From: Haplodiscus bocki
Lineage: Eukaryota
Assembly: GCA_965655095.1 (NCBI GenBank)
Contig: OZ296652.1
Coordinates: forward strand, 103,664,001-103,728,000
Direction: 5' to 3'
Length of the DNA: 64,000 nucleotides
Shown: in pieces, positions 3,092-62,913 of the stretch
Position numbering within the stretch: the stretch's first letter is position 1
How the letters are laid out: each line of letters opens with the position of its first letter
The notes under the pieces: generated by a model
What the model was told of the DNA's origin: nothing
Database searches by the model: none
Seen by the model: the letters and a program-made list of their open reading frames with translations, nothing else
Position numbers and translations under genes: made by a program

Positions 3092-4831
3092 TGTCGCAGC
3101 GCATCTGCGAGGCTTGTGGACAGTCGCTCCCTGAGTCGAAGGACATACCAGCTTCGTCGTCAACAAACTAGAAACTCACGACTGAAAACTTCACACACAT
3201 ATATTCATTTTTCTCAACATTTGTACATAAACGATACGTAGTAGTTACGTATCAACCCCATGCACATATATGTAAATCGTGTAAACGATACGTATTGGTT
3301 GCGTATCGTTCCATAATAGTCACTCCATGAAAAAACACGTACCCTATACATGCAATTCCGGTGAAGTGATCCAAATTGGGAAGGAGCAACTGCGAAACAA
3401 CAGAAATTCATTTACTTTCCCTACTGTATATTTATATCATTATTAGGTGCATTTTGATAACTACTTTAACTAATTAATATATAACTCTACGTTTTCTAAT
3501 TGACTTTTGCAGTAATTTAAATCAAGATTGACAGTATCAATGAGTTTGCAATAATTCATACAGCTATTATTACAGAGCGTGACTTTAAAAGTGAATAATT
3601 CTTCCGTATGTGTTCCGTCGCAACCAACCTGGTGACGCTACTAGAAGTTAGGCCAAATCGCTGTGCCACTACGCTGTGTCGTTTTGGACGAACACGTAAC
3701 TGTTACGTAGCAACCCATTTCATTCTCAGTAGCTCTGTTGAGAGCAGTGCTACTAGCGGCTACGTGGTCGTTCCGGAAGGCTTCGGCCAAAATCAGGAAC
3801 GAGCTAGTAGAAATGAGGAACGGACTAGTGGAAAACATAGTTTTTTCCCAACATTGGATTTAATGGATGCAATATGTAAGCATGTGTAAACATGAACTTT
3901 ATCAATCATATTTATGTGTTTTATTTTATGTGAAGGTGCATTCTTTAGTATTTTCCTATTATGGAAAATCCTTTGGATCTTCTCTTTATTTTATCATTTA
4001 TTGTGTCGGCGCGAGAATATTCAATTTAACGCCATTTCTGATGGATTAGACCTGTAGTTTTTCCTGTCGAAACATGGAAAAAACGCGGTCTATGAAGAAA
4101 GAAAGGGACGGAGAGATGTTTAATTCCCGCCAGAGTTGGCAATTTTTCTGCATAGACAATATGATTAAAGTACTTTTCCCTATTTTTACCTTGAGTTGGC
4201 GTGGAAACAATCATGTCTCCCGCCAACGAAAAGGTAAAAATACGAGAAACGAAATTGCCAATACTAAGATAAAATTTTGTATCGTTTGTTATTCTACTCA
4301 TTTTCTGAAATCATTGACTATTTGTTGTCGTTGAAACCCTTCTCCCTCATAATAAACGAGATCGACTCTTTTGTTAAAGATTAGGAAATCAATTCAATCT
4401 TCACAGCTGACAGAGCTTTTCCCTCAAAATTATGGCAACACTGAGGAATAAGAGAAAATTAGCTGCAGTTTCGAAGGAAACACTAGAAAATACAAGGAGC
4501 AGTCAGTCACAAAACACAGTTGATCCGGAAGTGGCTCAAGAGTACATCTCCCAAGTTGCTGATGAAATCGAAGGGAAGGTCACTTAAGAACTCTTCAAGG
4601 AATTCAGCTGGACGGAGTCGGGCATTTTGGGCGCTTTGTCTAAACTTGATGAACTTCTTCTGAACCGACAAGTCCGGACTTGTTCCCTAGCTGTTCCGGG
4701 AACAACCAGGAACAACAACTCAGAAAACCTGGAACCCCTGGGGATCGTTCCGTTGGCGATCCATGTCCCGAAGTGGTGTTCTCTAGCTTCTGGTAGTCTG
4801 AATGGTTCAGAGCAGAAAGAGACTCATCACA
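3092..4831 (+). repeat. 5' LTR (~1.74 kb, TG...CA)
   Basis: Colinear with the TSD-bounded solo LTR at 61179-62913. Ends ...GACTCATCACA, followed directly by TGG (PBS-like). AATAAA at ~4350. Confidence 0.88.
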
Positions 4832-6016
4832 TGGTCTCAAGAGTTCAACAAGACACTCCCTACTGCTCCCATGGAGCTTCGCCAGGAAAAGAAAAGAAGG
4901 AGCGCTCTACAATTCAGCCAGAATTTCGTACTGAAATCACCCCTGAGACAATTGAAGCAAACCAGATTCTGTTGGCCCTTCATGAATTGGCGATGAACAG
5001 CACTTCAGCCAATTTCAACAACAATATCAACAGAATCGCGAAATTGCTTAAATCCCTCACAACGACAATGCGCATTTTTTACGGGAAATCAAATAAAATC
5101 TAACTGTATGAAGATGTGTTCCAGGCAGGTTTGAGAATCTACAATGAACTTACAGAAGACGACAAAAGAAACTACTTCCACTCTCTCATGCCTGGTGATT
5201 CGCTAGAAACATTCAAAAACATCATCAGCTTCAAAGGAGGAAACTTCGGAGAAATTCTGAGTGTGTTCCGTAGAAAACACGTGAAACCCCAGGCAATGGT
5301 TACAACAAAACACAAATTTCCACGACTGGTCTTCAAACCAGCGAACCAGAAGTTATCACATTTTCTAGACGAACTCCAGAAGCTAGAGAAAGATGCATTC
5401 GGAGTTGCCGTTGAGGCAATTCATATATGCCAAAATGCTACCCCAACTGATGAAATTGATTAATCAGGCGCAGTTGGAGAAGGGCACAATTGAACAGATT
5501 GTGTCATATCTTGAAAGAGAGTTGGAGCTGAATGGTTTGGAAGCTCCAGATGAGCTGCAGATAATTGCTGTGACGCAACAAGCCACACAACAAAACCAAA
5601 AACATCCAAACCAACTTGCCACCACTGCAAAGTGCAAGGTCAATATCGAAACCAGTGCCGTCAACTCAAACCAGAAAGAAACCAAGCCCAAAGCAACACG
5701 AATGGTGCCGGCAATAAATAACAACAGCAATAATGGTGGTCAGACAAATTCTAACTCCAACAAAAAAAACTCCTAGCAATACCAACGCAATGAATACAAG
5801 CAATCAAAAAGACAAGAAACCTAGAACTGTCTACGCACCCTGTGAGACCTGTGGTAAAAGTAACTGTTCCTTATAGAAATCCTATTTTGGAGCAAACGCA
5901 GCTAATAGACAGCCTCCCGGGAATAGACGGCCGGAAGGACAGACTCAAGTCCAAAAAAGAAAAACTCAAAATAATTCAGATGTGAATGTTCAAGCTGCAG
6001 CCCAAACTTCAACTAG
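4432..6016 (+). pseudogene. gag: gag-like ORF (disrupted), starting inside the 5' LTR
   Basis: MATLRNKRKLAAVSKET...; capsid-like segment (ELTEDDKRNYFHSLMPGD); degenerate Zn knuckles (TCHHCKVQGQYRNQC; PCETCGKSN). Contains stops and frameshifts. Confidence 0.8.
4832..4845 (+). promoter_or_regulatory. putative primer-binding site (TGGTCTCAAGAGTT; resembles tRNA-Leu-type TGGTGTCAGGAGT)
   Basis: TGG immediately after the LTR-terminal CA. The tRNA identity is tentative (2 mismatches). Confidence 0.6.
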
Positions 6017-6019
6017 AAA

Positions 6020-9000
6020 CGCCGCCTCTTCACTCCGGAGCTGCATGTGACAGACCGGAGGCAATTAAAACACAAATACTCCCACCATCTCCCGAGGTTG
6101 TCTGGCATCAACTCACGGAGACATTTATAGATCAATACAACTTAAAAATACCAAAAAAGACTCTACAATACAATATACTCAAGAAACTCAAACAGCGAAT
6201 ATAGCAAGTCAAACGTCGCCACCGAAGATAATTCAACCACAGAACTACGTAGTTGCCACGGAACCACCAACAAGAATTCAAACAGGAAACGACCCTGTAC
6301 TGTTCCTTAGCTGCTCCAAAAATTGTCCTACTGATATCGAAGAATCAGAACAGCCCACAACGACTACCTTTACTGAAGATACCACCATCCCATTTCTCAC
6401 GATAACAACCCCACTAATTGAGGAGGGGTTGATGAGAGATTAACAGACTAATGAGGTTTATCTCCCATTAACCTCTACGAAGGTCTTCAAACGAAACAAA
6501 AATTGCTCTATTTGCCGCTGGATTTCGAGAGTAACCTAACAGTAGATACCTTGGTAGACTCAGGAGTCTATGTCAATGCAATTGCTCAGAATGACTTGGA
6601 CATAATAAAACAGAAAGCCCTAAATAAAATTCTCAAAATCGACCCTCCCAACTTTCAACTAGTAGCAAATGGCCAGTTAGAAAAACCGTTAGCAACAACC
6701 ACGCTTTAATTTGAAACTGGAGACAATATATTTGCTGAAAATTTTGTCGTAATGAAGAAATTAACAGGTCCCATAACAGGGTTCCATTTTATGAAGAACA
6801 ACAGTGTAGTCATTGACACAACACAAGGTCTCATACCTTTCCCACACTTGACGATGCAAGTTAAAACTGCCTCAAGTGAAACAACAGCAAAACCCCAATC
6901 TGTCCTCAATGACAATGCCCTGACGATACCACCAAGGACAACAAAACAATCACAGCTTTTGTTGACCATGGTTCAGAAAGGAACACAACAGTGACTGTGA
7001 CACCATTGGAGAAGTTTACGGAAACAGCGAGTCTGCTGACTTCCCCTGAAATGTCCACAAATTAAAAAGAGAATAGCAGTCAGGGTAACCAAGACAACCA
7101 AATCACCATATCTAATCAAAAAGAACACACAGGTTGCAGAATTCTCCGTAGTCACTACGTCAGAGTTCAAGGAATTTTTTGATTCAGTCAATACAGTTCT
7201 CAGTGATGCTTGCGAACTAGCACTGAAACAGCCCATTCCAGGAAAAAACTGGTCCTATTGAGGGATGCCAGCTTTAGAAGTGGTGGATATGCCCTCTTTA
7301 TTGAAAACAATCCCCTTCAAAAGAAACGGTCCAAGCGGAAAAATTACCCCCCGTGGCGTTTGGTTCAAAAATTTTCTCCCCCGTGCAACTCAAGATGCCC
7401 ATATAGTCCAAAGAAATTTTGGCAGTTTACATGGCATTTCTTTAGTTTGCACATGTTCTGTGGGAAGCATCAAAACCAACAATTGTTTTGACAGATAACA
7501 AATCTGTTACACGTTTTTTCCAAGCAAAAGCAATTCCACCAGCACTGTGGAATGCCTGTGATTATCTGTTAAAATTCAATTTCAAAACAGCAAACCCTGC
7601 CAGTTCAGTCAACACTGCGGTGGACTCTCTCGAAACCGAAACACAAAGTGGCGGAAAAGATACGTCTCAAAGACCGGGAAGATCTTCAAATAAAACACAT
7701 TCAATTGACCACATCTTCCTCAGATGCCGCTGAAGAAGAACAATTTTTCTTCACACAAGCAGACAATGAAGACATGTCAGAAGAACAAACCCTTGAACAA
7801 AAAGATCAATGCGGACAAAATGCGAAGCAATATGTAGCAACTGAGGAACCAGCCTCATTGAAAACAAGTTTGAAAGAATTTACAAAGATAGACGGAAACA
7901 CTACATCGTAATCCGTGAACAGAATCAAGGCAAATGCACAAATACGAGTGAAACAAGATGTCGGTCTGGTCTTGAAAAACATGAAATTGAAATTTCCAGG
8001 CCAACCATATGACGTGCTAATTAAGACGGACTAACGACACAAACAAAACAAGGCAAATGAAGACCGCATATTTCCTAAAGATGGCCTACTATTCAGGAAA
8101 GATTTTGGACAAACGGGTAGCGTCAAAAACTCACAAAATCTAAACCCAAAGCAATCAGCTCTTGAAGTATTCCAGAGCTTGCACGGAAAATTTCGATATT
8201 TCCCAGCCCAGGAATTACCAAAACAATAATTGCTTAGAGTGAAAAAATCTATTTCCCGGAAATGGCGCAAATGACCAGGAAGTGCGTCATGTCATGTGAG
8301 TAATGCACCAGAGAATCACGAATTGATCGCAGCTTCACCCGCTTTTCCCTGCAAAACCCTAACGAGCACATTACTGCACCAGAGGATGCCATGCAAGAGG
8401 ATTTGGTGCCGGAGTTGCCTCGTTCCGGTAGGTATGGAAATGTTTTGACAACCATGGACGTATTTTCCCAAATTTATTTGCCTACCCGACGTCACACCGA
8501 GACGCCAAAACAATTGCTGAAGTTTCTATCAACATCATGAGCAAGCACATTTATTTATCAACGACACTCATTTCAGATAAATGCTCACATTTCGCGTCTC
8601 ACGTAATTAAACAAGTGACCGGCGTCATCGGTATTACTCTAAAGCACGCAACCTCATTGCACGCACAAACAATTGGGCTGCTTGAACGATCTCCTGCGTC
8701 AGTCAAACAAGTGTTTAAGGTCGAAACAAGCGAGCGAAGATCATTGTGGCATAAATATGTCATTATTGCGGTCCTCAATTACAAAACTTCTCGTCACACA
8801 AGCAATGGCTGTGAGCCAAGCACAGTCTTTCATGGGCGCATTCCTTACAATATATTGGATTTAAAAATGGGAGTTCTTCCACAGCAAGCACCCACTCCCA
8901 CTTCTCCAAATTGCCCAAGATGTTCTTGACCAAACCCAGATGATCTACCAAGATCTTTGACGAAATGCGATGCAAGCGTGCATCAAATACAAAGCTTAAT

Positions 9001-10027: not shown

Positions 10028-13000
10028 TTATGGCAATCCTCCTTGGAAAACAATAGCGGTTCTCCGGTTTCGTCCACTAGGACGTGATTTTCTGCAGGAT
10101 TGCTGGCGGTCCAAGGCGGCACTAGAACCCGAATCCATGACTACACGATGTTGTTGAGACGGCCGAGGGAGGACATGCAAATTCGAAGCGCCTAGGTAGC
10201 TTCACCGGGCTCCGACTAACTTCCCTCTTCTTGGACTTTCCTGAGGAAACACGCAGACTGGTGGGGTCGGCAGCACTGATGGAAAGACCACTCACTCAAT
10301 CGTATCCAACCTGCCCCTTTTCCACTATCTTAGAGATTCTCACACCAGAACAAGATGCAATATCTTCTCAAGATAGCCTGTCGCCACATACCGCATACCA
10401 ATTTTCTTGTGAAACCTTGACTGCTCTCCGACGATCCACAGGCCGATTCACACCAGCACAAACGTCAGCCACCAATTGTGAAGAAGACGTGGTCTTCACT
10501 TGGCTCCAGGGTTCAAAAACAACACTACTTGTGATGCTGTCACATATTGCTGCAGACTCAGCCAAAATGGCGATGCCGGACTCAGAAAACAAATTCCTTT
10601 GATTAAAGTGCGGGCTCCTCAGGAAATACTGCGCGCAAAGCAGAGCACCACGCACTTCATCTTCGCCAATCATCACACGATCTAGACTGATATTGAACTT
10701 CTCACTGGAAGTTACTGGCCCACGAATAATGAAAGCTGTTAGCTGGAACACCTGCAAAAAAGACAATTCAATCACCACTCGAACGACGAAAAAGCTTTAA
10801 CTCATTGGTCACGGAACAAACTCTAAAACAGATGCTGGCAAGCACGGAAACGAGCCTGCAAAGAGCAAAACGACAAGACGTCAGCTACGTCAGGGCGGTG
10901 CCTCGTTGAAGACCGGCCCAGCTGTTGTTGCTCTTGGACATAAGACTGGTACTCAGCCCGACAAGCCTCGAACTCGCTGCCTCTGACCCACCCCCTTTCT
11001 AAAAGTCCATCCAGCACAAGACCAATCTGATGAAACGGCGTGTGGTCGTCCCCACCAATGACGATCGCAGGGCCAAAACAACTCAATCCTTGTCCGATTG
11101 CGGAACGAGCAGCTACGTTGGAGATCATAGAGTTTGTTAATTCCTCCAGGAACCTACTGGTTCCCGTCGAAACTCTCTCTTCAAATAAGAACTTTCAATC
11201 TTGTTGAGAGCTGCCAACACCCGCGTCCCATTCAAAAACTCATCGTCGGCAATTGGGCGAAACTTAGGTTGATTTGCCCGCACATACTGTTCCCACTGCT
11301 CCACGAGAGGCAACGAACGTCCTTGATTAATCTTCTGGGGCAGGCAATAAACAAAGCGAGTCAACTCACCAAACGACTGGTACCCATAATCGTTCGATGT
11401 TTGAGGATGAAAAAAATTGTTGGCAACTGAAACAGAACATATGTCACAGACATTGGAAAGACACTACTATCCAGAACTTGCCAAGACTCGTGAAACTTCA
11501 AAAAAGAAAGAAAAATGGAGCAAATGTGGAACATTACTAGAGCGCTCCTGGAATTATTCATGAAACTGATCCGGAATCACTACGTACCGACGTGTTTTAT
11601 AATGGGAAATGTGATGATGACACTTAGAGATTTCCAGAAGAAAATGAAACACCCTGATTTTCATGCGAGCAAGCTGATTGTGGTATAGATGCCCGTCCAT
11701 TCCCTTCATCTAAACAACAAAACGGCAATAAATACATTCTAAAGACGCAAATAAAATACCCACAATGGAAGACTTTACCACAAGGCTATCTCCATCAACT
11801 TTGTGGCCAGTCTCCTTCAGGTATCATACCACTAGTGGCCATACCCCAAAGATATTCGCCACCACATCGACTAGGCTTGGCATGGAGAGGTCGTTAGTAA
11901 TGATGGCCCTTCGCAATGCCGGATCAGGTGCCATCCAATCCCGAGTCTCTGCCCCTTCAACCGCTTCACAACAAATTTCGGCATTGAGAATGGGACAAGG
12001 CTCCCAAACACAGACGGAGCAGTCCACTAGAGGCAACGCTTCATCAGCCGGAGATCAAATATGGGGTACTCCACGAGCTTGGCACGGTACCCATTTCCCA
12101 GGTAACTTGCAAAAGCATCTGCAAGAACATGCTAACCTCCATGCAGAGACACACAGATGCATCTGGACCAGCAGCATCCAGATTTTTGTCCAGAATCGCA
12201 GCCTCCGGGGTAGTGTTGGCGCTGAAGCGGCTCAACGCGACAACACAAACACGACGAAATGTGGAGCTCTCCCAAGTCCGCACCATCACCCAAATCTCTG
12301 AGTTGCGCTCTTCGAACTCAATGCTGCATTGTCCGTGCGCTTTCACCTACCCGAACACACGAGAAAGGATTCGAGGGTACATCCCGTTCAAAATGATCGA
12401 CTAAAACACAGCACCAATAAGCCAATGAACATGGATACACAGACTCATGGAACATGAGATTACCAACCAACACCTCGTCTCGAGACCATGTTACATCAAT
12501 GTTCATTCGGCTGGCAGTCAATGTGAATAGGGGCCACACTTGGTAAACCAGCTCATAGGTGCCACCCAATCGCAACATTTCAATCAGCAACGACACCTTG
12601 GCAAGGACTGGCAACGTGGCATCCAGAGTTCCAGTGTCATCCACAGTTAGATCCTCGGCAAAGGGATACTCTCGATCCCGAATGACCAGAGGACCACGAT
12701 AAATGCGCTTCCTTTGGCGCTTCAGTTCATTTTCACTGAGGGGGTTTCCCTCAAAAAAAGCAGAACCCGCCAACCAGGTGTCTCCAGTCTCAGTTGCTGG
12801 TTACGGGCGAAATGTTTGACACCTTGAAAGTGCCTCAGGATTTCATGTGCACCGTGTGTCAACAGCGACACGTCTTTACGGCAGATGCGGCAATGGAAGT
12901 GGCTAAGTCTGCCAGCCGCATCCATAACTCCAGTGACGAAGTACCGACCAACTTCCTCTGCTCCCCACACCTTCTTCATTTTATACGTGCGCTTTGATCG

Positions 13001-14284
13001 CACACTACGACGGGGATAGCTGGCCTGTGTTTCGCCCACGCTGGTGTCACTGGTGTCAAGAACTTGTGGACCAGAAGGTGCAACACCTTGTCCCAAATGA
13101 GGGAGAACAGCATCTTTTTCTGTGAACAGGAACATTACAGTGAACAGAGGAAAACTATGAAAGCTATGAAATACGTAGTAAATAACTTACTCCCCATCAA
13201 CGGATCCAACATTTGTGCTGTCTCGTCAGCACAAACTGGATAGCACATCGTCAGATATCCTGTGGCGTTAATTGGAGCAAATGCAGAATCAACGGGAAAA
13301 TGGTCTAAATAAATTGAAAGAAATCAGGCGCCCCCAAGGAACCAAACTTAAAGTATCCTCAATCTTAATTAAACTCCCGGCTTCCAATTTCAGCTGGCTT
13401 GGCTGCTGACTCGATGCAGCAACAAAACGACGTGTGATGACAGCACGTTTTTGTCTCCTCCTTTGCCTCATTTCTGCTTCTGTTGAAACATCGCCAGCCC
13501 CGGAGAAACATGAACCATCACCAGCTGGACCTGCAAAAGAGCCAAATAAAACAACTGGTCCCTAATTTGCCAACACGAAGCACAATAATGCTACATACTT
13601 GACGAAATTTCCATGGGAGCAGCTGTCGAAGCGCTAACAGCCTCCTCATTGGACGTAGGGTGTCCCACCACAAATTTGGATCCAGAACTGCATAGAAGAT
13701 CACACATTGTCTCCTCAGGGCGAAAAGCAGGCTCTCCGGAAGAATCAAACACTAAAATACAAAAACCCCATGATGCCATCTTCATGTATAACCGCACGCT
13801 GAATACTAGCTTATGGAAAAGATGAGTGGCCACCATATTATTCCTACAAATAAAGTTAATGGAAAATGAAAAATGAAGAATAACACAATGGCAAATCAGG
13901 AGTATCAACACACCCTCCAGCAAAGTCTCTGTCAAAAATTCTTCACGTTGCAGAATGTCCGCAAATGTTAATCCTTTTGATTCACCTCTAGTATCTCTTT
14001 CCATGCCACCCATGATGACCACCAAACTGTCTCTTTCGCTTGCTTCTTCGACTCAACCATCACTCGCTTCAACCTCCTCCAACGCTCTCCTCACACACTC
14101 TTCTCCCTCTATGACGACAACATTTGAATGGGGGACAAAGTGGGAACTGGGGACCAGACTACTCGCAGAAACATCCTCATTAATTGCAAGTTCTCGCTCG
14201 TCACCGGCTACAATCCCAGCAAAAGGGGAAGTGATCCCTACCTCTTTTCCCGTCGAACTCATTATTTCGAGTAATGAATGACAT
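10028..14284 (-). pseudogene. antisense multi-exon gene inside the retrotransposon; C2H2/BED-like Zn finger plus hAT-transposase-like body (decayed)
   Basis: Minus-strand ORF fragments joined by short GT-AG introns (10752-10821, 11427-11477, 12401-12467, 13120-13190, 13531-13598). Motifs CRICRKDVSLLTHGAHEILRHFQGVKH, CSIEFEERNSEIWVMVRTW and VFQLTAFIIRGPVTSSEKF. The 5' exons are approximate. Confidence 0.7.
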
Positions 14285-14649
14285 GGCTAAAAAGCTATTA
14301 CATGGTGGATTTACATATTTTTTCATTGAAATTCCTAATTAGCTAAATTTTAAGTCTGATTACTTTGTCTGCCAGCAATGACGTCAGCATGCGTTTTCAA
14401 GGATACATTGAGGAACGATACTCAAGTGTTCCCTAAATTAAAAATCTCCAATTTTCATATTTCTTTACATCCCATTAACATCAATTTCACTCTTTACTTC
14501 CTAACCACATCAACACTGACCCGGAACGCGGAAGCATCAAAAGAAATCTCGACTGATGAAAAGCCAAATAAAGTACCCACAATACCAATCACTTTCCTAG
14601 AGTCAATTCATACTAATCAGCTGCATTTTCTCCATCATTAGAATTGAAG

Positions 14650-15317
14650 ATGTTTCGACCAATTTCGCGGGAACCCAATGATTCTGATTTATTTTATGTG
14701 GAACAATCGTCAAATGAACCAAGTCCACCCAGACCCAATACGCTGATTGTCCTCAACTCCACAGAGATGTCAGGCAACAATACCCGGGAAGTGATAACAT
14801 TATCATCCATTGAATCGCCTGGACAACAAATCGTTACAATCGACTCTGCTTCGAACGAACCAACGATGCCAAATCGATTTGGACGACAGCTATCGATTAT
14901 TCTACCAAGCCTCAACTATCTGAACCTGTTGCCTAATGCATTCAATATACTGGCAACAATGGTGGTAGCAAAACCTACAGCAGAAGGACATGACAAAAAC
15001 TACAGCTCCCAATCACGGGAACCGTCGGAACCGTCATTGATTTCGACGCCCCGATGAACCTCAGCACAATTGAGGGATGGGAGGCACCATGTACGACGAC
15101 GGATGATAATACATTCTACTCCGATGATGAACCCAGGAGAATTTATTTTCTACCCTCAAGTCCTTCCCCACCGCCGCCACTCCGAAAACTGAAAAGAAAA
15201 CTGAGCCTTGTAATGTCCTTCCCAAAAAGAGGGGGAGTGTTGCAGCACATCTGCGAGGTTTGTGGACAGTCGCTCCCTGAGCCAAAGGACATACCAAGCT
15301 TGTCGTCAACAAACTAA
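14650..15317 (+). pseudogene. accessory sense ORF (~220 aa, one frameshift near 15054), Ser/Pro-rich with SIM-like motifs and a basic NLS-like stretch; overlaps PPT and U3
   Basis: ORF-track pieces 14644-15057 and 15054-15317 abut. The C-terminus HICEVCGQSLPEPKDIPSLSSTN* is conserved in frame at the start of the LTRs at 3092 and 61179. Confidence 0.6.
15224..15237 (+). promoter_or_regulatory. polypurine tract
   Basis: AAAAAGAGGGGGAG directly before the TG start of the 3' LTR. Confidence 0.85.
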
Positions 15318-15481
15318 AAACTCAAGACTGAAAACTTCATGCAAATATATTACATTATTTTCATCATTTGTACATAAACGATACGTGGTAGTTACGTATC
15401 AGCCCCCAGCACATTTATTTAATTCATATAAATGATACGTAGTGGTTACGTATCGTTCCATAATAGTCACTCCATGAAAAA
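15238..15481 (+). repeat. 3' LTR, truncated (~240 bp)
   Basis: Matches 3092-~3335 (roughly 85-90% identity by eye). Similarity stops after ...CACTCCATGAAAAA. Confidence 0.88.
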
Positions 15482-21005: not shown

Positions 21006-24000
21006 GTCAGTCAAAAAATAAAAAGTCTGTACTCACCAAGTGAAATCTTGACGTTAATTGATTAAGCGAGCAAAAATTAACTGGTTGATTAGTTAACCGA
21101 ACTCACATTGATTCTACCAAAACCAGCTTGATAATTGATGGAAAAAACATAGCATTTGAATTTTTGGGATGAAATAAAAACGATAGTTTTGACAGTCTGA
21201 GAGAGCAACATCATTTCTAGTAGAAAATATCCTCCTAGTAGCTTAATGGCACCTCAAAACAATTTAGGTTTTCGAGACCTGCCCTGGCACTGAAAACAAC
21301 TTTTCTCGTGACAGCACAGCTTTCTTTAAAATAGATGCAATAATGTCGTTAAGCGGTCATATTATTTTAACCTGTAAACCGGGTCAATCTCTGCGCCAAT
21401 ATTTTTAAATTCAATTAATAAGCAGAACCACATACTTTAAGGAAGAGCGCCATTACAACTGGAAAAATCGGCTTTATTTTTGTTTTTCTTTCACTTAATC
21501 GACAGCGTGCGACTACAAAATTTTGAACTTTTAAACCCAAAAAAAACAAATTCTTGAGCAACTATTGATTCGAAAAAGCACCAATGATTAAATATTACAA
21601 CGCGGTTGTTTCAACGACCGAATGAAGTTTGTATACATGGGACTGTCACTTTCGTACAATCTTTCCGGATGACTTATCCAGATGAAGATCCAGACGAAGA
21701 TTCAGAAAAGTGGATAGTTGAAGTTGTTTGCAGATTTTTACATATTAGGTCCTAGAAATATAATAAGATTATTCTAAACGTAAGTTAATCAAAAAATTTA
21801 GTGCACGAACGAAAGGAAGCAACTAGATTAGTAGATGAGCATTTTAAAAAAAGCTAGAGAGCGAGAGTTCTGTTGATAGGGACTTGACATCCCTGTATTA
21901 TAACAAACTGCCCAATTGAAACAATTTTTAAATCTACGAAATCAAAAACACTGTCGCATTTGAAAAAAGTAGTCTTCGATTAAATCAGAGGTTCTAAAAA
22001 TTTTTATATGCGTATCTGGAAAAGCTCATTGTTTTAATCTAAATAGCTATACTATCACGGTGAAAAACAAGACGAAAAAACTATGTCTCTAAACCTGATA
22101 TTCGTTTTTTCCTGCCTCGAGCTCTCACGTTTCCAGAAATAAATCACCACCTGAATAAAGTTTTCTGATAATTAGATTCGCAAATTAAATGAATAAAAAC
22201 TGAAGTTTTCCAATATTTGAAAAAATTCGTGCGGTTTGCAGTCCTTGAAATAATTCTCAAAGAGTAGTTTCTGGGGCTGAAAAAAAGTCTGTAAAAAAAG
22301 AATGAAATGAATTGGAATCAGTACCTCGTCCTAGACCAATTTGAACTTCTGCTAAGTGAAAAACAAAGATTCAGGAAACGCATCAAAAACAGCAGAAAAC
22401 AAGATTTTTTCACAAATACGTCATATGTTACAGCCGGGCGACAGATGGGACGATCCGAAAGACTCGTGCAAAGAAAAACAATGTGATTCGAATGGTAACA
22501 TAGTGACCTTCAACAAAGAGACACCACAGTGTCAAACGACAACACAAGGCGTACCAACTCCATCAACTCCAGGTGTACCTACTCCATCGACTACAGGAGT
22601 CCCTACTCCATCAACCCCAGGCGTACTCACTCCATCAACACCAGGTGTACCAACTTCATCAACACCAGGCGTACCAACGCCATCAACTCCAGGCGTGCCT
22701 ACTCCATCAACACCAGGAGTGCCTACTCAATCAACTCCAGGCGTGCCTACTCCATCAACACCAGGAGTACCCACTCCATCAACATCAGGCGTACCAACTC
22801 CATCAACTCCAGGCGTGCCTACTCCATCAACACAAGGAGTACCAACTCCATCAACACCAGGCGTACCAACGCCATCAACTCCAGGCGTGCCTACTCCATC
22901 AACACCAGGAGTGCCTACTCCATCAACTCCAGGCGTGCCTACTCCATCAACACCAGGAATACCCACTCCATCAACAAGGGGCGTACCCACTCCGTCAACA
23001 CCAGGCGTACCCACTCCATCAACACCAGGTGTACCTACACCATCAACACCAGGCGTACCAACTCCATCAACTCCAGGCGTCCCAACTCCATCAACACCAG
23101 GTGTTCCAACTCCATCAACACCAGGCGTACCGACTCCATCAACACCAGGCGTGCCTACTCAGTCAACACCAGGAGTGATTACTCCATCAACTCCAGGCGT
23201 GCCTACTCCATCAACACCAGGTGTACCTACACCATCAACTCCAGGTATACCAACTCCATCAACACCAGGCGTACCAACTCCATCAACTCCAGGCGTGCCT
23301 ACTCCCTCAACACCAGGAGTGCCTAGTCCATCAACTCCAGGCGTGCCTACTCCATCAACACCAGGAGTACCCACTCCATCAACACCAGGCGTACCAACTC
23401 CATCAACTCCAGGCGTGCCTACTCCATCAACTCCAGGCGTACCAACTCCATCAACACCAGGTGTACCAACTCCATCAACACCAGGCGTACCAACTCCATC
23501 AACTCCAGGCGTACCATTTCAATCAACTCCAGGCGTGCCTACTCCATCAACACCAGGAATACCCACTCCATCAACACCAGGAGTTCCAACTCCATCAACT
23601 CCAGGCGTGCCTACTCCATCAACACCAGGAGTGCCTAGTCCATCAACTCCAGGCGTGCCTACTCCATCAACACCAGGCGTACCAACTCCATCAACTCCAG
23701 GCGTACCAACTCAATCAACTCCAGGCGTGCCTACTCCATCAACACCAGGAATACCCACTCCATCAACACCAGGCGTACCCACTCTGTCAACACCAGGCGT
23801 ACCCACTCCATCAACACCAGGTGTACCTACACCATCAACACCAGGCGTACCAACTCCATCAACTCCAGGCGTACCAACTCCATCAACACCAGGTGTACCA
23901 ACTCCATCAACACCAGGCGTACCAACGCCATCAACTCCAGGCGTGCCTACTCCATCAACAACAGGAGTGATTACTCCATCAACTCCAGGCGTGCCTACTC

Positions 24001-27000
24001 CATCAACACCAGGTGTACCTACACCATCAACTCCAGGTATACCAACTCCATCAACACCAGGCGTACCAACTCCATCAACTCCAGGCGTGCCTACTCCCTC
24101 AACACCAGGAGTGCCTACTCCATCATTACCAAGAGTACCCACTGCATCAACTCCAGGCGTACCAACTCCATCAACTCCAGGCGTACCAACTCCATCAACT
24201 CCAGGAGTACCTACTCCATCAACTCCAGGCGTACCCACTCCATCAACACCTGGTGTACCAACCCCGTCAACACCAGGAGTATCTACACCATCGACTCTAG
24301 GCGTACCCACTCCATCAACTCCAGCCGTGCCGACTCCATCAACACAAAGAGTACCCACTCCATCAACACCAGGAGTACCCAGTGCATCAACACCCGGTGT
24401 ACCGACTCCATCAACACCAGGCGTACCAACTCCTTCAACACCAGGTGTACCAACTCCATCAACACCAAGCGTACCAACTCCATCAACTCCAGGCGTGCCT
24501 ACTCCATCAACACCAGGAGTGCCTACTCCATCAACACCAGGAATACCCACTCCATCAACACCAGGTGTACCGACTCCATCAACTCCAGGCGTTCCAACTC
24601 CATCAACACCAGGCGTACCCACTCCATCGACACCAGGCGTACCCACTCCGTCAACACCAGGCGTTCCCACTCCATCAACACCAGGTGTACCTTCAAAATC
24701 AACACCAGGCGTACCAACTCCGTCAACTCCAGGCGTACCAACTCCATCAACACCAGGCGTGCCTACTCCCTCAACACCAGGAGTGCCTACTCCATCAACA
24801 CCAGGAGTACCCACTGCATCAACGCCCGGTGTACCCTCTCCATCAACACCAGGCGTACCAACTCCATCAACACCAGGTGTACCAACTCCATCAACACCAG
24901 GTGTACCAACTCCATCAACACCAGGCGTACCTACTCCATCAACTCCAGGAGTACCTACTCCATCAACTCCAGGCGTACCCACTCCATCAACACCAGGTGT
25001 ACCAACCCCGTCAACACCAGGAGTACCTACACCATCAACTCCAGGCGTACCCACTCCATCAACTCCAGCCGTGCCGACTCCATCAACACCAGGCGTACCT
25101 ACCCCATCAACGCCAGGAGTGCCTACTCCATCAACACCAGGAGTGCCTACTCCATCAACACCAGGAGTACCCACTGCATCAACACCCGGTGTACCGACTC
25201 CATCAACACCAGCCGTGCCGACTCCATCAACACCAGGGGTACCCACTCCATCAACATCAGGAGTACCCACTGCATCAACACCCGGTGTACCGACTCCATC
25301 AACACCAGGCGTACCAACTCCTTCAACACCAGGTGTACCTACACCATCAACACCAGGCGTACCAACTCCATCAACTCCAGGCGTGCCTACTCCATCAACA
25401 CCAGGAGTACCCACTCCATCAACACCAGGTGTACCGACTCCATCAACTCCAGGCGTACCAACTCCATCAACACCAGGCGTACCCACTCCATCAACACCAG
25501 GCGTACCCACTCCGTCAACACCAGGCGTGCCTACTCCCTCAACACCAGGAGTGCCTACTCCATCAACACCAGGCGTACCAACTCCATCAACACCAGGCGT
25601 ACCCACTCCGTCAACACCAGGCGTGCCTACTCCCTCAACACCAGGAGTGCCTACTCCATCAACACCAGGCGTACCAACTCCATCAACTCCAGGCGTACCA
25701 ACTCCGTCAACACCAGGTGTACCTACACCATCAACACCAGGCGTACCAACTCCCTCAACACCAGGAGTGCCTACTCCATCAACACCAGGCGTACCAACTC
25801 CATCAACTCCAGGCGTACCAACTCCGTCAACACCAGGTGTACCTACACCATCAACACCAGGCGTACCAACTCCATCAACACCAAGCGTGCCTACTCCGTC
25901 AACACCAAGCGTGCCTACTCCGTCGACACCATCGCAGCCGGCTCCGTCTACTCCAGGTTCGAGCACATCGTTTTCGACGGTATCAGTAACACCCATTGTT
26001 CCCAAAACGACGTGTTAGATTTTTGCTATTTTTCGCTTGCGTGCATCGTTTTGGATAATATTTAAATGGATTTTTTAGCGCCACCATACGGAAACACACC
26101 ACCAACACCTGGTTATTTTTTCAACATTTTTTCAATCATTTTTTGGCAATATGGGTTACATTTCTTGCTTTGAATCACCTTGTCCATTTTCCTAAAAAGT
26201 CTTTCTGAAAGTGATCGGGTGCTGTCTTCTGAAGTCGAACTTTCCAGCTATCGAATCTGCAGCTCTTCATTCTGGTGACTTATCTTTTACGGTCTTTTCA
26301 GGACCTATCACTACAACTACTCCAAGCGAGTTCAGCAGCACAGAAAAACCATCTTGTGACCCAGCTTTGCCATGTGGTGAATCAAAGACGAGTGTTGTTA
26401 CCGAAAAATGCGACGACTCTCAGATTGATGACCCCAATTGTGGTCTGAAATACACTGACACAACTACCGTACATGGATGTTGTGAAGGTTTGTGAGCTAA
26501 ACAAATTCATACACGATCGAGCATGACAATTGCATTGGTTTATGAGATGAAAAATGAATTGAATTGACATATTTTCCTAGTTGGATCATTTGGGAGATTT
26601 TTGCATGATCTTCAACATTTATTTCAAGTTAACTTATCGATGATCTGCTTGAACAGACAAATAGGCAAGATATTTACCACAACTCCTTCCGAGTAATTCA
26701 ATTCTGCCACGCAAAATTGTTTTCTTTTGTTTCGTTTTTTTTTGTTGAGATTGCAGTTTTTTGTTGAAGAATGTATGCTTCCTTACGAAGAGTGTGCTGA
26801 GAACAAGACATGTGTGGAAATTCAATATGGATCACCTTCGGGTGATGGCTCTAGTGACGGATGTTGCTGTGGAGCGGACACCGTTTATGACGAGGTCACC
26901 AAGTCTTGTGTGAAACCAGATAACTGTGGCTGTGTGTACAATATGTCTGGAGAGTATAAGACATTCACTCCCATGGACAGCAGTGTCACGTACAAGCCCG

Positions 27001-43700: not shown

Positions 43701-45235
43701 TGTCGCAGTATATCCGCGAAGCCTACGAGCACCAAGAAAGAAAAGGACATCACCGGATTGTCTGAAATTTGGAAGAAACTGTATCGAAACTTTGGATTTT
43801 TCTATTTCCATTTTTATTATAATGTTGCAATCATATTTTAACGCCTTTAGATGTAGTTGATACGTATCAAATACGTATCACTCCCCAGTAAATGTTCATG
43901 TAAATTGTACGTATTGTATACGTCGCACTCCCGTGTACTAATCCAGATTGGGACGGAACTGTTACGGAACGGACATGTATCTACCTGGTAGCTACACTAG
44001 TAAATATTTGTTCCGTACGCCTTCCGTCGCTACCAATCTGGTGACGTCACAAAAATTTCAACCAATCCGCTGTGCTATTATGCTGTGTCAATTGGGACAA
44101 ACACAGACCGGTTACGTAGCCACCTAAATCATTATTCTCAGTAGCACTGCGGCGAGCAGTGCTACATGCGGCTACGTAGTCGTTCCGCAACGCTTTGGCC
44201 AAAATGAAGAACTGGCCCGTATTAACGAGGAATGGACTAGAAAATAGGCTAGTTTTGTTCCAAAAGTGGATTTAATCGATGCAATAGTATTTCGAAGCAT
44301 GTAATTATGATTTTCTATGATTATTTTAGTGTATTTTACCTAATTTTAGTGCATTTTTTATTAGTTTCCTCGTATGGAAAATCTTTGATCATTTGTTTAT
44401 GTTAATACTTATTGTGCCGGCGCCGGAAAAAGCACTTTGATGTCAATTACCGACTGATCAGACCCGTATATTTTCCGTCGAAAAATGGAAAAGGCGCGGT
44501 GTGTAAAAGAAGAAATGGACGGAAAGATGTTTATTTCCCACCAGAGTTGGCACATTTCCTATGTATTTATTATGATTAAAGTACTTTTCCCTACTTTGTA
44601 CTTTTACTTGGCGTGTAAACAAATATGTTTCCCGCCAAGTGAAAGGTATAAATAGGAGAAATGAAAGTACTGAGGAGAAATTCTTAATATCACTTTGATT
44701 ATCAGTCGACTGTACTGATTGCGACTAGTTGGTTATTCTAAAGAATAACATTTTTTGTTATAGTCTCAAGTTGATTAACAAATAAGAACTAATTCAGTCT
44801 TCATAACTGCGTAGCAATTTCCCTTCAAAAAGATGGCAACAATGAGAAACAAACGAAAGTTGGCAGACGTTACCAGAAAAACACAAGAGGAACATCCTAG
44901 GAACGGCCAGTCACGGCACACGTCCGTTCCTAGAACTAACGAGGAATATATCACACAAGTTTCCGAGGAGATTGAAGGCAGAGTCTGTAAAAAACTGTCC
45001 CAGGAGTTCAGCAGGACAGAGTCCCGCATTTTGTGTGCTCTGTCTAAGTTAGACGAATTTCTCTTGAACCCACAGATACGGACGCACTCCGGAACCGTTC
45101 CGGGAACATTCCGAAACACAAACGTGGAAAACCAGGGAACGAATGAGGACGGCTCCCAGAGTGATCCTCATTCTGAAGCAGGCATCTTCGGCAGCCAGAC
45201 TACACCAAACTCTGGCCCAGAATTTGGCCCTGACA
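43701..45235 (+). mobile_element. solo LTR related to the 3092 element (1535 bp)
   Basis: TGTC...GACA termini, 5-bp TSD CAATC (43696-43700 and 45236-45240); similar to 3092-4831. Confidence 0.9.
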
Positions 45236-61178: not shown

Positions 61179-62913
61179 TGTCGCAGCACGTCTGCGAGGC
61201 TTGTGGACAATTGCTCCCTGAGCTGAAGGACATACCAAGCTCGTCGACAACAAACTGAAAACTCAAGATTGAAAAGTTTTATTTAAACATTTTCCGCATC
61301 AATTTTAAATTAAGGATACGTAGTAGTTACGTATCCACCTTGTACACACATATGTAATTCATGTAAACGATACGTAGTAGTTACGTATCGTTCGATAACA
61401 TGTAGTTCATGTAAAGAACACATATCCGATACGTGTAATTCTGGTGAACTGATCCTGATTGGGACGGAACAGATACGGAGCAAACGGATATTCATTTATT
61501 TCCTTACTGTATTCTTATATTGATATTAGGTGCTATTTTATATGATTTATCTAACTAATTATTATATAAATCCAACTTTTCATCGACGTGTGCAGTAAGC
61601 AGTTTATCTAGGTTGACAGTTTCAACAAGTTTTCAATAGCTTAACTATTATTATAGAGCTTGATTTTAAAAGTGAATTTTTGTTCCGTCTGTGTTCCGTC
61701 GTAACTAATCTGGTGACGTCACTAGAATTTCTGCCAATCCGCTGTTTCACTTTAGAGGGACACGGAACAGCTACGTAGCCACCCGATTCATTCTCATCAG
61801 TAGCGCTGCGGAGAGCAGTGCTGCAAGCGGCTACGTAGTCGCTCCGGAACGCTCCGGCCAAAATGAGGCGTGAGCTGGTAGAAACGTGGATTGGACTAGA
61901 AAAAACCTAATTTTGTTCCCAACAGTGGTTTTTATCGATGCAGTACGTAACCACGTGTAAACATTAACTTGTCTAGCATTTATGTGAATTTTGTTTTATG
62001 TATTTCATTTATTTTTCCGATGCGTTTAATTAATTTCCTCTTATGGAAAACTTCTTTGATCTTTTGTTATGTTATTATTTAATGTGTCAAGGCGGGAATA
62101 ACCACTTTGATGTCCATTTCCGACGGATCAGACCAGTTTTTTTTCCGTCAAAAGGTGGAATCGACGCGGTCCGTGAAGGGAGAAATGGACGGAGAGGTGT
62201 TTATTTCCGCCAAAGTCGGCATTTTCCTTTTATAAATGATATGATTAAAGTACTTTTCCCTATTTGTACCTTAATTGGGCGTGTAAACAAGTATGTTTCC
62301 TACCAAGGGAAGGTATAAATAGGAGAAAAAAAGTACCATTAATATTATATAAATTTTAGCCTTCTGGTATTGTAAATTTTTTTAAATCAATGACTGTTTG
62401 CATTTCTTCAAACCCTTTTACCTCATAATAAGAGGAGATCATCACTTTGGATTATAAAACAAAAATTTCAATTCAATGTTCACTGCTGACAGAACTTTTT
62501 CCTAGTATCATGGCAACTTTGAGGAATAGGAGGAAATTAGCAGAAGTTTCAAGAGAAACACCCGAAAATACCAAAAATATTCAGTCACAGAACACGCTTG
62601 ATCCAGAAATGGCTCTAGAATACATCTCCCAGGTTTCCGACGAGATCGAAGGGAGGGTAATTAAAAGGTTTTCAAAAGAATTCAGTGGGGCAGATTCTCG
62701 TTTCTTGGGTGCTCTGTGAAAACTTGACAAATTCCTTCTGAACCCAAGTTCGGACTTGTTCCGTAGCCGTTCCGGGAAAATCCAGGGACAGCAAATCAGA
62801 AAAACGGGAACCGACTGGGGATCGTTCCCTGGACGATCCCTGTCCCGGGGCGAGATTCTCTTCTCATCACTCTGGCAGTCTAAATAGCTGAGAGGTGGAA
62901 GAATATCCTCACA
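61179..62913 (+). mobile_element. solo LTR of the 3092 family (1735 bp) including gag start at 62510
   Basis: TG...CA, 5-bp TSD GCAAT (61174-61178 and 62914-62918); colinear with 3092-4831. Confidence 0.93.

Follow-up and report, generated by a model that had tools for sequence, protein, structure and literature searches.

The window analysed here is a stretch of 64,000 nucleotides of the Haplodiscus bocki genome. Self-BLAST of the window revealed a long repeat at 3092-4831 that aligns end to end with 61179-62913 and in part with the region at ~44-45 kb. The features of the locus, which include a long terminal repeat (LTR) retrotransposon assigned to a family termed A and two solo LTRs, are listed below.

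3092..4831, + strand: 5' LTR, 1740 bp, with TG...CA ends, of a decayed family-A Ty3/gypsy element (self-BLAST and alignment with solo LTRs bounded by target-site duplications, TSDs).
4235..4242, + strand: position of a candidate TATA-like box, ~190 nt 5' of the gag ATG, degenerate in the window copy.
4392..4398, + strand: ATTCAGT-type motif ~39 nt 5' of the ATG, one base off in the window copy; candidate Inr-like start or splice acceptor.
4432..6020, + strand: gag gene, 3' end approximate, broken by stops and frameshifts in the window copy.
4432..4831, + strand: gag codons 1-133 within the LTR, encoding a basic N-terminus, a predicted long helix and a low-confidence linker.
4537..4680, + strand: codons matching a helix of 48 residues predicted in the family-B protein (positions 37-84, core pLDDT 85-91; AlphaFold2 model and net dN/dS of 0.08 for codons 31-85).
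4832..4844, + strand: primer-binding site (PBS) for tRNA-Leu(CAG), codons M-V-S-R-V (M-V-T-G-V in the family), with 10/13 bases matching in the window copy.
15224..15237, + strand: polypurine tract (PPT), with the accessory ORF passing through it into the LTR.
15238..15481, + strand: 3' LTR, truncated, first 244 bp only (self-comparison).
43701..45235, + strand: family-B solo LTR (solo 1), TSD CAATC, ATG at 44833, frame open 139 codons into the flank.
61179..62913, + strand: family-A solo LTR (solo 2), TSD GCAAT, ATG at 62510, frame broken.

The distance from the ATG at 4432 to the LTR end is 400 nt, corresponding to 133 codons plus the A of the next ATG, while 403 nt and 404 nt were measured in solo 1 and solo 2. 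The initial annotation had placed the LTR end at 4831, with the gag ATG about 400 nt inside it and a like offset in the solos, and these measurements bear it out; the end at 4831 agrees with the TSD-bounded solo LTRs and with a two-LTR copy whose LTRs are 99.6% identical. The frame also reads through the PBS as proposed, giving ETHH/MVSRV at the window junction (the slash marks the LTR end). The ~133 codons described as U5 do lie within the LTR; "U5" itself is an inferred label. The window copy is decayed, with a TAA at codon 52, a stop near 5101, further stops and no RT. Its ATG-to-end distance is 6 nt below the family-A mode of 406 and the copy has a frame-shifted stretch at ~4738-4790, and its PBS carries 3/13 mismatches to the tRNA. 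Owing to this decay, the LTR-coding claim was tested on other genomic copies, and since only the first 244 bp of the 3' LTR are present, the window copy cannot fix its own LTR end.

Two further regions of the window were noted. About 5 kb of decayed accessory ORFs, partly cysteine-rich, lie 3' of the integrase (10279-15320); the fragments of this region scanned with Pfam gave no match, and env was not identified there. Errantiviruses, the env-carrying Ty3/gypsy elements, have an env ORF of the F or gB type. A ~24-nt tandem repeat makes up a 1197-codon ORF at 22425-26018, and the other strand there carries an ORF of 761 codons.

By its layout, as read from the sequence, the element is Ty3/gypsy (Metaviridae). 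The LTRs have TG...CA ends and 5-bp TSDs, within the 4-6 bp of the group, a tRNA PBS adjoins the 5' LTR, a PPT precedes the 3' LTR, and the Gags carry a Ty3/Arc-type capsid and a CCHC knuckle (several matches below cut-off). The pol of a third family, C, displays the Pfam order gag-asp_proteas, RVT_1, Integrase_H2C2, rve and Integrase_p58_C, in keeping with the PR-RT-RH-IN order of Ty3/gypsy. Family A yielded an RVT_1 match (Pfam), and RNase H was identified by eye in translations. Against solved structures, the family-C RT (L175:3650-4822, - strand) matched foamy-virus RT (E 1e-14) better than Ty3 RT (3e-7), a ranking that is not diagnostic of clade. Membership of Ty1/copia was rejected because the integrase follows the RT; the element is Ty1-like only in its gag/LTR/PBS layout. 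Troyka was also rejected, given TG...CA ends and a 5-bp TSD here versus CG...CG ends and a 3-bp TSD in the accessible part of PMC12440569. Odin retrotransposons and lokiretroviruses are defined, in the portion of PMC9040795 available, by a dual RNase H (a tether plus a new RH). One Ty3-type RNase H was read here by eye between the RT and the integrase zinc finger.

The LTR junction was then compared across the 1.5-Gb genome, where the junction search gave 6,734 first-look candidates and 30 loci were kept per search. Family A had the junction in phase (+1) in 15/30 loci, with a modal ATG-to-end distance of 406 nt (12/30; range 397-407), and its frame carries on as HH/MVTGVQEEIPY into the capsid. 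For family B, the junction was in phase (+1) in 24/30 loci and the distance was 403 nt in 21/30, with one unaligned; a perfect 5-bp TSD at the LTR end was present in 7/30 loci, and 5/30 were PPT-led 3' LTRs. The family-B copy L067 has LTRs of 1549 bp with 1542/1548 aligned bases identical (99.6%), the TSD GCTTT, no pol, and a stop-free gag of 519 codons whose ATG lies 403 nt inside the 5' LTR. L067 (G000:C3:107.19 Mb) and L069 (C2:28.35 Mb) are two-LTR copies of ~7.2 kb, and the family-B copies examined are gag-only and non-autonomous.

Family C was reached via the N-terminus of a distant Gag and presented a distance of 565 nt (188 codons + 1) in 23/30 loci, in phase in 26/30. Nine perfect-TSD solos were identified among its 30 loci, together with a two-LTR pair with the TSD ACTGT, and a copy with 99.7% identical LTRs has its gag frame open from the LTR ATG to codon ~570. 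BLAST detected no similarity between the family-C N-terminus and that of families A and B (E above 1); among themselves, C-like N-termini do match. The junction nonetheless keeps an equal phase at the PBS. An xMVTG/xVVTG motif lies 114-195 residues past the Met in six distant Gags taken from a 50%-cluster library, the LTR end being seen only via the family-C relative, and of 22 representatives whose capsid motif lies 60 or more residues from the start, 13 have an xMVTG-type motif upstream of it. When the N-termini of three distant Gags were searched against the genome, two found no match and one led to family C. Across the copies compared, the gag frame begins 133-188 codons inside the 5' LTR, a clade-wide layout, and the LTRs measure 1.5-1.8 kb. 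Two family-C loci, L139 and L131, have a PPT to the left and a PBS to the right of the LTR and are shared LTRs of tandem elements. Many predicted proteins (P0129-P0270) match only Gag residues 1-130/135 and then diverge, as expected of solo-LTR ORFs entering the flank.

The PBS, TGGTGACAGGAGT, is complementary to the 3' terminus (plus CCA) of a tRNA-Leu(CAG) of the host genome. The complementary tRNA-end pattern has 729 genomic matches, and ARAGORN called tRNA-Leu(CAG) in 2/6 of those fetched; the 729 include a tandem array at G000:C1:161.07-161.15 Mb and beyond, where the matches recur every 424 bp. Of the three junction frames, one is interrupted by a stop, another gives HGDRS and the remaining one, H/D-M-V-T-G, is used by families A, B and C alike.

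In family B, the junction consists of tandem 42-nt units inside gag, each pairing a PBS with a downstream LTR-end-like CAYGACA and spanning 14 codons. The lengths of the intact Gags follow the same step, with 63/120 measuring 505, 519, 533, 547 or 561 aa. Among loci resembling solo 1 (n=30), the end lies one unit further on in five, of which L041, L044 and L046 have perfect TSDs, and two units further on in a single locus. A search aimed at one particular type of unit (30 loci, two of which share a flank and four of which were already in earlier sets) found 24 that end exactly after the unit, three internal arrays, two chimeric loci and one that ends two units later. The 24 comprise 10 with a perfect TSD (three of them from the earlier sets), three with one mismatch, one with two mismatches, two PPT-led 3' LTRs and eight without a located left edge. 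Separate extensions were observed in L044, in L126 (family C, TSD-bounded, 33-nt unit) and in the 3' LTR of L069, and the two-LTR pair L171/L168 has an extra unit on its 3' LTR. TSD-bounded LTRs that end after 0 or 1 unit indicate that the LTR end shifts along gag in frame.

We propose that the 3' end of the LTR would be fixed by whichever CAYGACA/TGGTGACAGGAG cassette gets primed. In retroviral reverse transcription, priming at a second PBS would put the first unit in the strong-stop DNA and hence in both LTRs; priming of family B at the second unit would accordingly leave both LTRs 14 codons longer and gag unbroken, since the units are whole codons and lengthening does the gene no harm; the longer LTRs bounded by TSDs have just this form. 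The first PBS of the extended lineage mostly carries a base that matches only 5 tRNA-end copies, versus 729 for the standard form. This PBS was mismatched in 30/30 longer-LTR loci versus 5/30 in L071-L100, and it was perfect in 25/30 standard 5' copies, a contrast that is biased by a query with a variant first PBS.

The longer LTRs could instead stem from DNA recombination, or from integrase cutting at an internal att-like site, rather than from second-PBS priming. Every unit does end in an att-like CAYGACA, the 3' LTR of L069 stops mid-unit, and the LTR ends of L049, L145 and L151 are chimeric with a family-A LTR end. LTR-LTR recombination alone would, however, end at unit 0, and the extra unit on the 3' LTR of L171/L168 requires copying in strong-stop DNA. 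The mostly unmatched first PBS of the extended lineage (5 of ~734 tRNA-end matches) also argues against this alternative, which we consider improbable. The three chimeric loci each consist of a family-B LTR, one or two PBS units and a family-A-type LTR end, and L049 and L145 are in frame, at 511 and 550 nt from the ATG. Spare in-frame primer sites that move the repeat's end by 14 codons likely illustrate the way in which an LTR can take in a portion of a gene. Window-copy decay, the clade-wide layout of 134-188 codons and the tandem in-frame PBS units that vary the LTR end had all escaped the initial annotation.

Coding constraint was assessed by pairwise codon comparisons of 27 family-A and 30 family-B natural copies, with the window copy (L001) and two near-duplicates (L019 and L020) left out. 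The net between-family (A versus B) dN/dS for codons 2-115 was 0.13 (0.06-0.22), which bears out purifying selection on the LTR codons, a point raised in the initial annotation. The net value was 0.06 for codons 2-30, 0.08 for codons 31-85 and 0.04 for the capsid, while codons 86-134 were weakly constrained (0.52, 0.26-1.01). As controls, the other sense frames gave 1.03 and 1.36, upstream LTR windows gave 0.60-1.60, and the antisense frames gave 0.80, 1.44 and 0.30, where 0.30 belongs to the shadow frame with common third positions. The initial annotation had left room for an unconstrained frame 5' of the PBS Met; that frame is constrained, the A-versus-B identity per codon position being 0.73/0.80/0.52 over codons 1-85, capsid-like (0.85/0.89/0.67 in the capsid), and nearly flat in the upstream LTR.

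Variants within families point the same way in A and C. Family A had 35 nonsynonymous and 32 synonymous gag-frame variants among those shared (present in at least three copies) versus 284 and 66 among singletons (p=2e-6), and family C (26 copies after dropping four second LTRs) had 35 and 42 versus 190 and 66 (p=6e-6), with no shared stops in either. The start ATG is kept in 22/28 A, 27/30 B and 25/26 C copies, and a purine at -3 with G at +4 surrounds it in 26/28, 30/30 and 25/26. Family B alone exhibited no synonymous excess in the LTR codons (shared 16 nonsynonymous and 6 synonymous, p=0.8; within-B dN/dS 0.82, 0.60-1.14), while its capsid does (p=2e-5). Indels in family B (3 in the LTR codons versus 155 upstream) are not evidence, as the loci were chosen by similarity over that stretch. 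Taken together, the comparisons indicate that the gag codons resident in the LTR are under purifying selection as protein code. Synonymous divergence between A and B falls from ~1.1 in the LTR codons (window 4432-4776) to ~0.5 for the capsid and ~0.1 for the upstream LTR; the low upstream value relative to the LTR codons points to mosaic LTRs or strong promoter constraint.

These results bear on a second alternative, namely that translation of Gag initiates at the PBS Met, the LTR frame being an independent or vestigial upstream ORF. An in-frame ATG does lie exactly at the LTR/PBS junction, some library gene calls begin there (P0122, P0123 and P0176), and family B by itself lacks constraint on the LTR codons. 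That ATG is nevertheless forced by the att end and the tRNA complement (CA+TGG), no conserved stop separates the LTR ATG from the PBS ATG, the fixed A/B indel is -3, and selection is already strong from codon 2. Among the best 120 full-length relatives, 105 begin at the LTR ATG and 0 at the PBS Met, counts that carry a query and length-filter bias. A start at the PBS Met is therefore very unlikely. The third alternative, a shorter true LTR with the "solo LTRs" as deletion products that keep part of gag, could draw on the truncation of the window element's own 3' LTR after 244 bp and is already refuted, with almost no probability left to it, by intact two-LTR copies, both LTRs of which end at the long end; perfect 5-bp TSDs at that end in 7/30 B and 9/30 C loci and the PPT-led 3' LTRs (5/30 B) also speak against it. 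Full-length copies, for which the initial annotation had considered shorter LTRs, keep the same long LTRs with the ATG inside.

The Gag read from the LTR ATG was modelled for family B by AlphaFold2 on a 54-sequence alignment (mean pLDDT 56). The model predicted a 48-residue helix at residues 37-84 (pLDDT up to 91), with low confidence over residues 83-246. A coiled coil is not claimed for this helix, which has no clear heptad. The family Gags match DUF1759, Retrotrans_gag and zf-CCHC in Pfam, several below cut-off, while the LTR-encoded part has no Pfam match. The best fold matches of the capsid were PNMA2/Arc capsids, with weak E values of 0.002-0.09, none at or below 0.001. The LTR-encoded part supplies a basic N-terminus and a predicted long helix, probably a matrix-like or assembly head.

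The LTR sequence upstream of the gag ATG was compared for signals of expression. Families A and B share TTTCCCGCC motifs of an E2F-like type. The TATA-like motif at -189 is present in 26/30 B and 13/27 A copies and TCAGTY at -39 in 28/30 B and 17/27 A copies, and ATTCAGT occurs at about -20 in family-C examples. No conserved ATG lies between -211 and the start in families A and B, and some ATG occurs within 165 nt upstream of the start in 18/26 family-C copies. Comparison of the LTR sequences gave no poly(A) signal common to families A, B and C. Transcription probably begins 20-190 nt upstream of the gag ATG, making that ATG the first AUG, and the start could be TATA-driven (about -160) or lie at the Inr-like motif, which would otherwise be a splice acceptor.

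Gag is likely translated from the ATG inside the 5' LTR, without a change of frame across the LTR end and the tRNA-Leu(CAG) PBS into the capsid, and reverse transcription would copy the LTR gag codons into minus-strand strong-stop DNA, so that they are duplicated in both LTRs. We assign a probability of roughly 0.88 to the explanation as a whole, in which an LTR-coded Gag head is read through the PBS and the LTR end is set by the primed cassette. At the other end of the element, the accessory ORF crosses the PPT into the LTR for ~26 codons in family A and 32 in family C. Its stop falls at codon 32 in 18/20 family-C copies, and a synonymous excess is present in that family (p=0.004, n=21); the family-A sample (n=11) is too small for a selection analysis. 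The claim that both LTR ends are coding thus stands at the level of sequence in A and C, while selection backs it in C only, and it is for family C that we regard it as supported.

Coding sequence within an LTR is known from HIV nef, foamy bel and MMTV sag, accessory genes that lie over the U3 of the 3' LTR. They are comparable to the accessory ORF that runs 26-32 codons into U3 here; in contrast, the main structural gene of the present elements has its start within the 5' LTR, towards the 3' end of that repeat. The closest likeness in this respect is Ty1 of Saccharomyces cerevisiae, where the gag start precedes the PBS, which is contained in the GAG ORF (PMC4974528), the 5' UTR at nt 1-53 and the PBS at nt 95-104 leaving ~14 codons before the PBS (PMC5454406). 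Both systems have the PBS inside the gag frame; Ty1 differs in superfamily, in its tRNA-iMet primer and in those ~14 codons versus 134-188 here, which encode a selected, predicted helical domain. The accessible parts of the two Ty1 papers do not mention tandem PBS units.

Animal Ty3/gypsy elements, including errantiviruses (PMC13524379), share with these families the LTR-gag-PR-RT-RH-IN layout, TG...CA ends, 5-bp TSD, PBS, PPT and an Arc/PNMA-like capsid. The available portion of that paper says nothing of gag lying within the LTR, and a term search of its 1512-element table gave no match for the tRNA-Leu(CAG) end. The literature searched, including the accessible text of PMC3095310, PMC3601003, PMC7175516, PMC11117352 and PMC7947760, with Repbase reports and most subscription papers outside its coverage, described neither a domain-sized gag/LTR overlap nor a stepwise, PBS-driven LTR extension through tandem PBS units. 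The gag-LTR-PBS layout is known from Ty1, and the domain-sized overlap and the in-frame moving end are new to this literature, the moving end being the more surprising.

More tentatively, and with somewhat more doubt than confidence, the families may be products of a ratchet of the LTR boundary, in which in-frame att+PBS cassettes walk the LTR end, loss of the first PBS fixes the steps, a Gag domain is captured and thousands of solo LTRs come to act as fusion starts. Degenerate 42-nt units were not detected within the LTR-coded region of families A or C (p 0.5) and were marginal in B (p 0.03). As no degenerate units are detectable farther up, the ratchet is not established as the origin of the 400-565 nt.

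LTRs are treated as non-coding regulatory repeats, and pipelines seek gag 3' of the PBS. A family with thousands of candidate genomic matches (6,734 at first look) carries a whole selected Gag domain in its LTR, and it follows that such Gags would be annotated short and solo LTR ORFs overlooked. The layout would make the priming tRNA and elongating ribosomes share bases at 400-570 nt of the ORF and would call for strong-stop DNA of exceptional length, estimated at ~440-750 nt. The stepwise longer LTRs form a natural record of LTR boundary movement, making LTR growth testable from genome sequence alone. If the ratchet is true, thousands of solo LTRs, each combining a promoter and a strong ATG with 134-188 codons open into the host flank, would constitute ready-made fusion starts.
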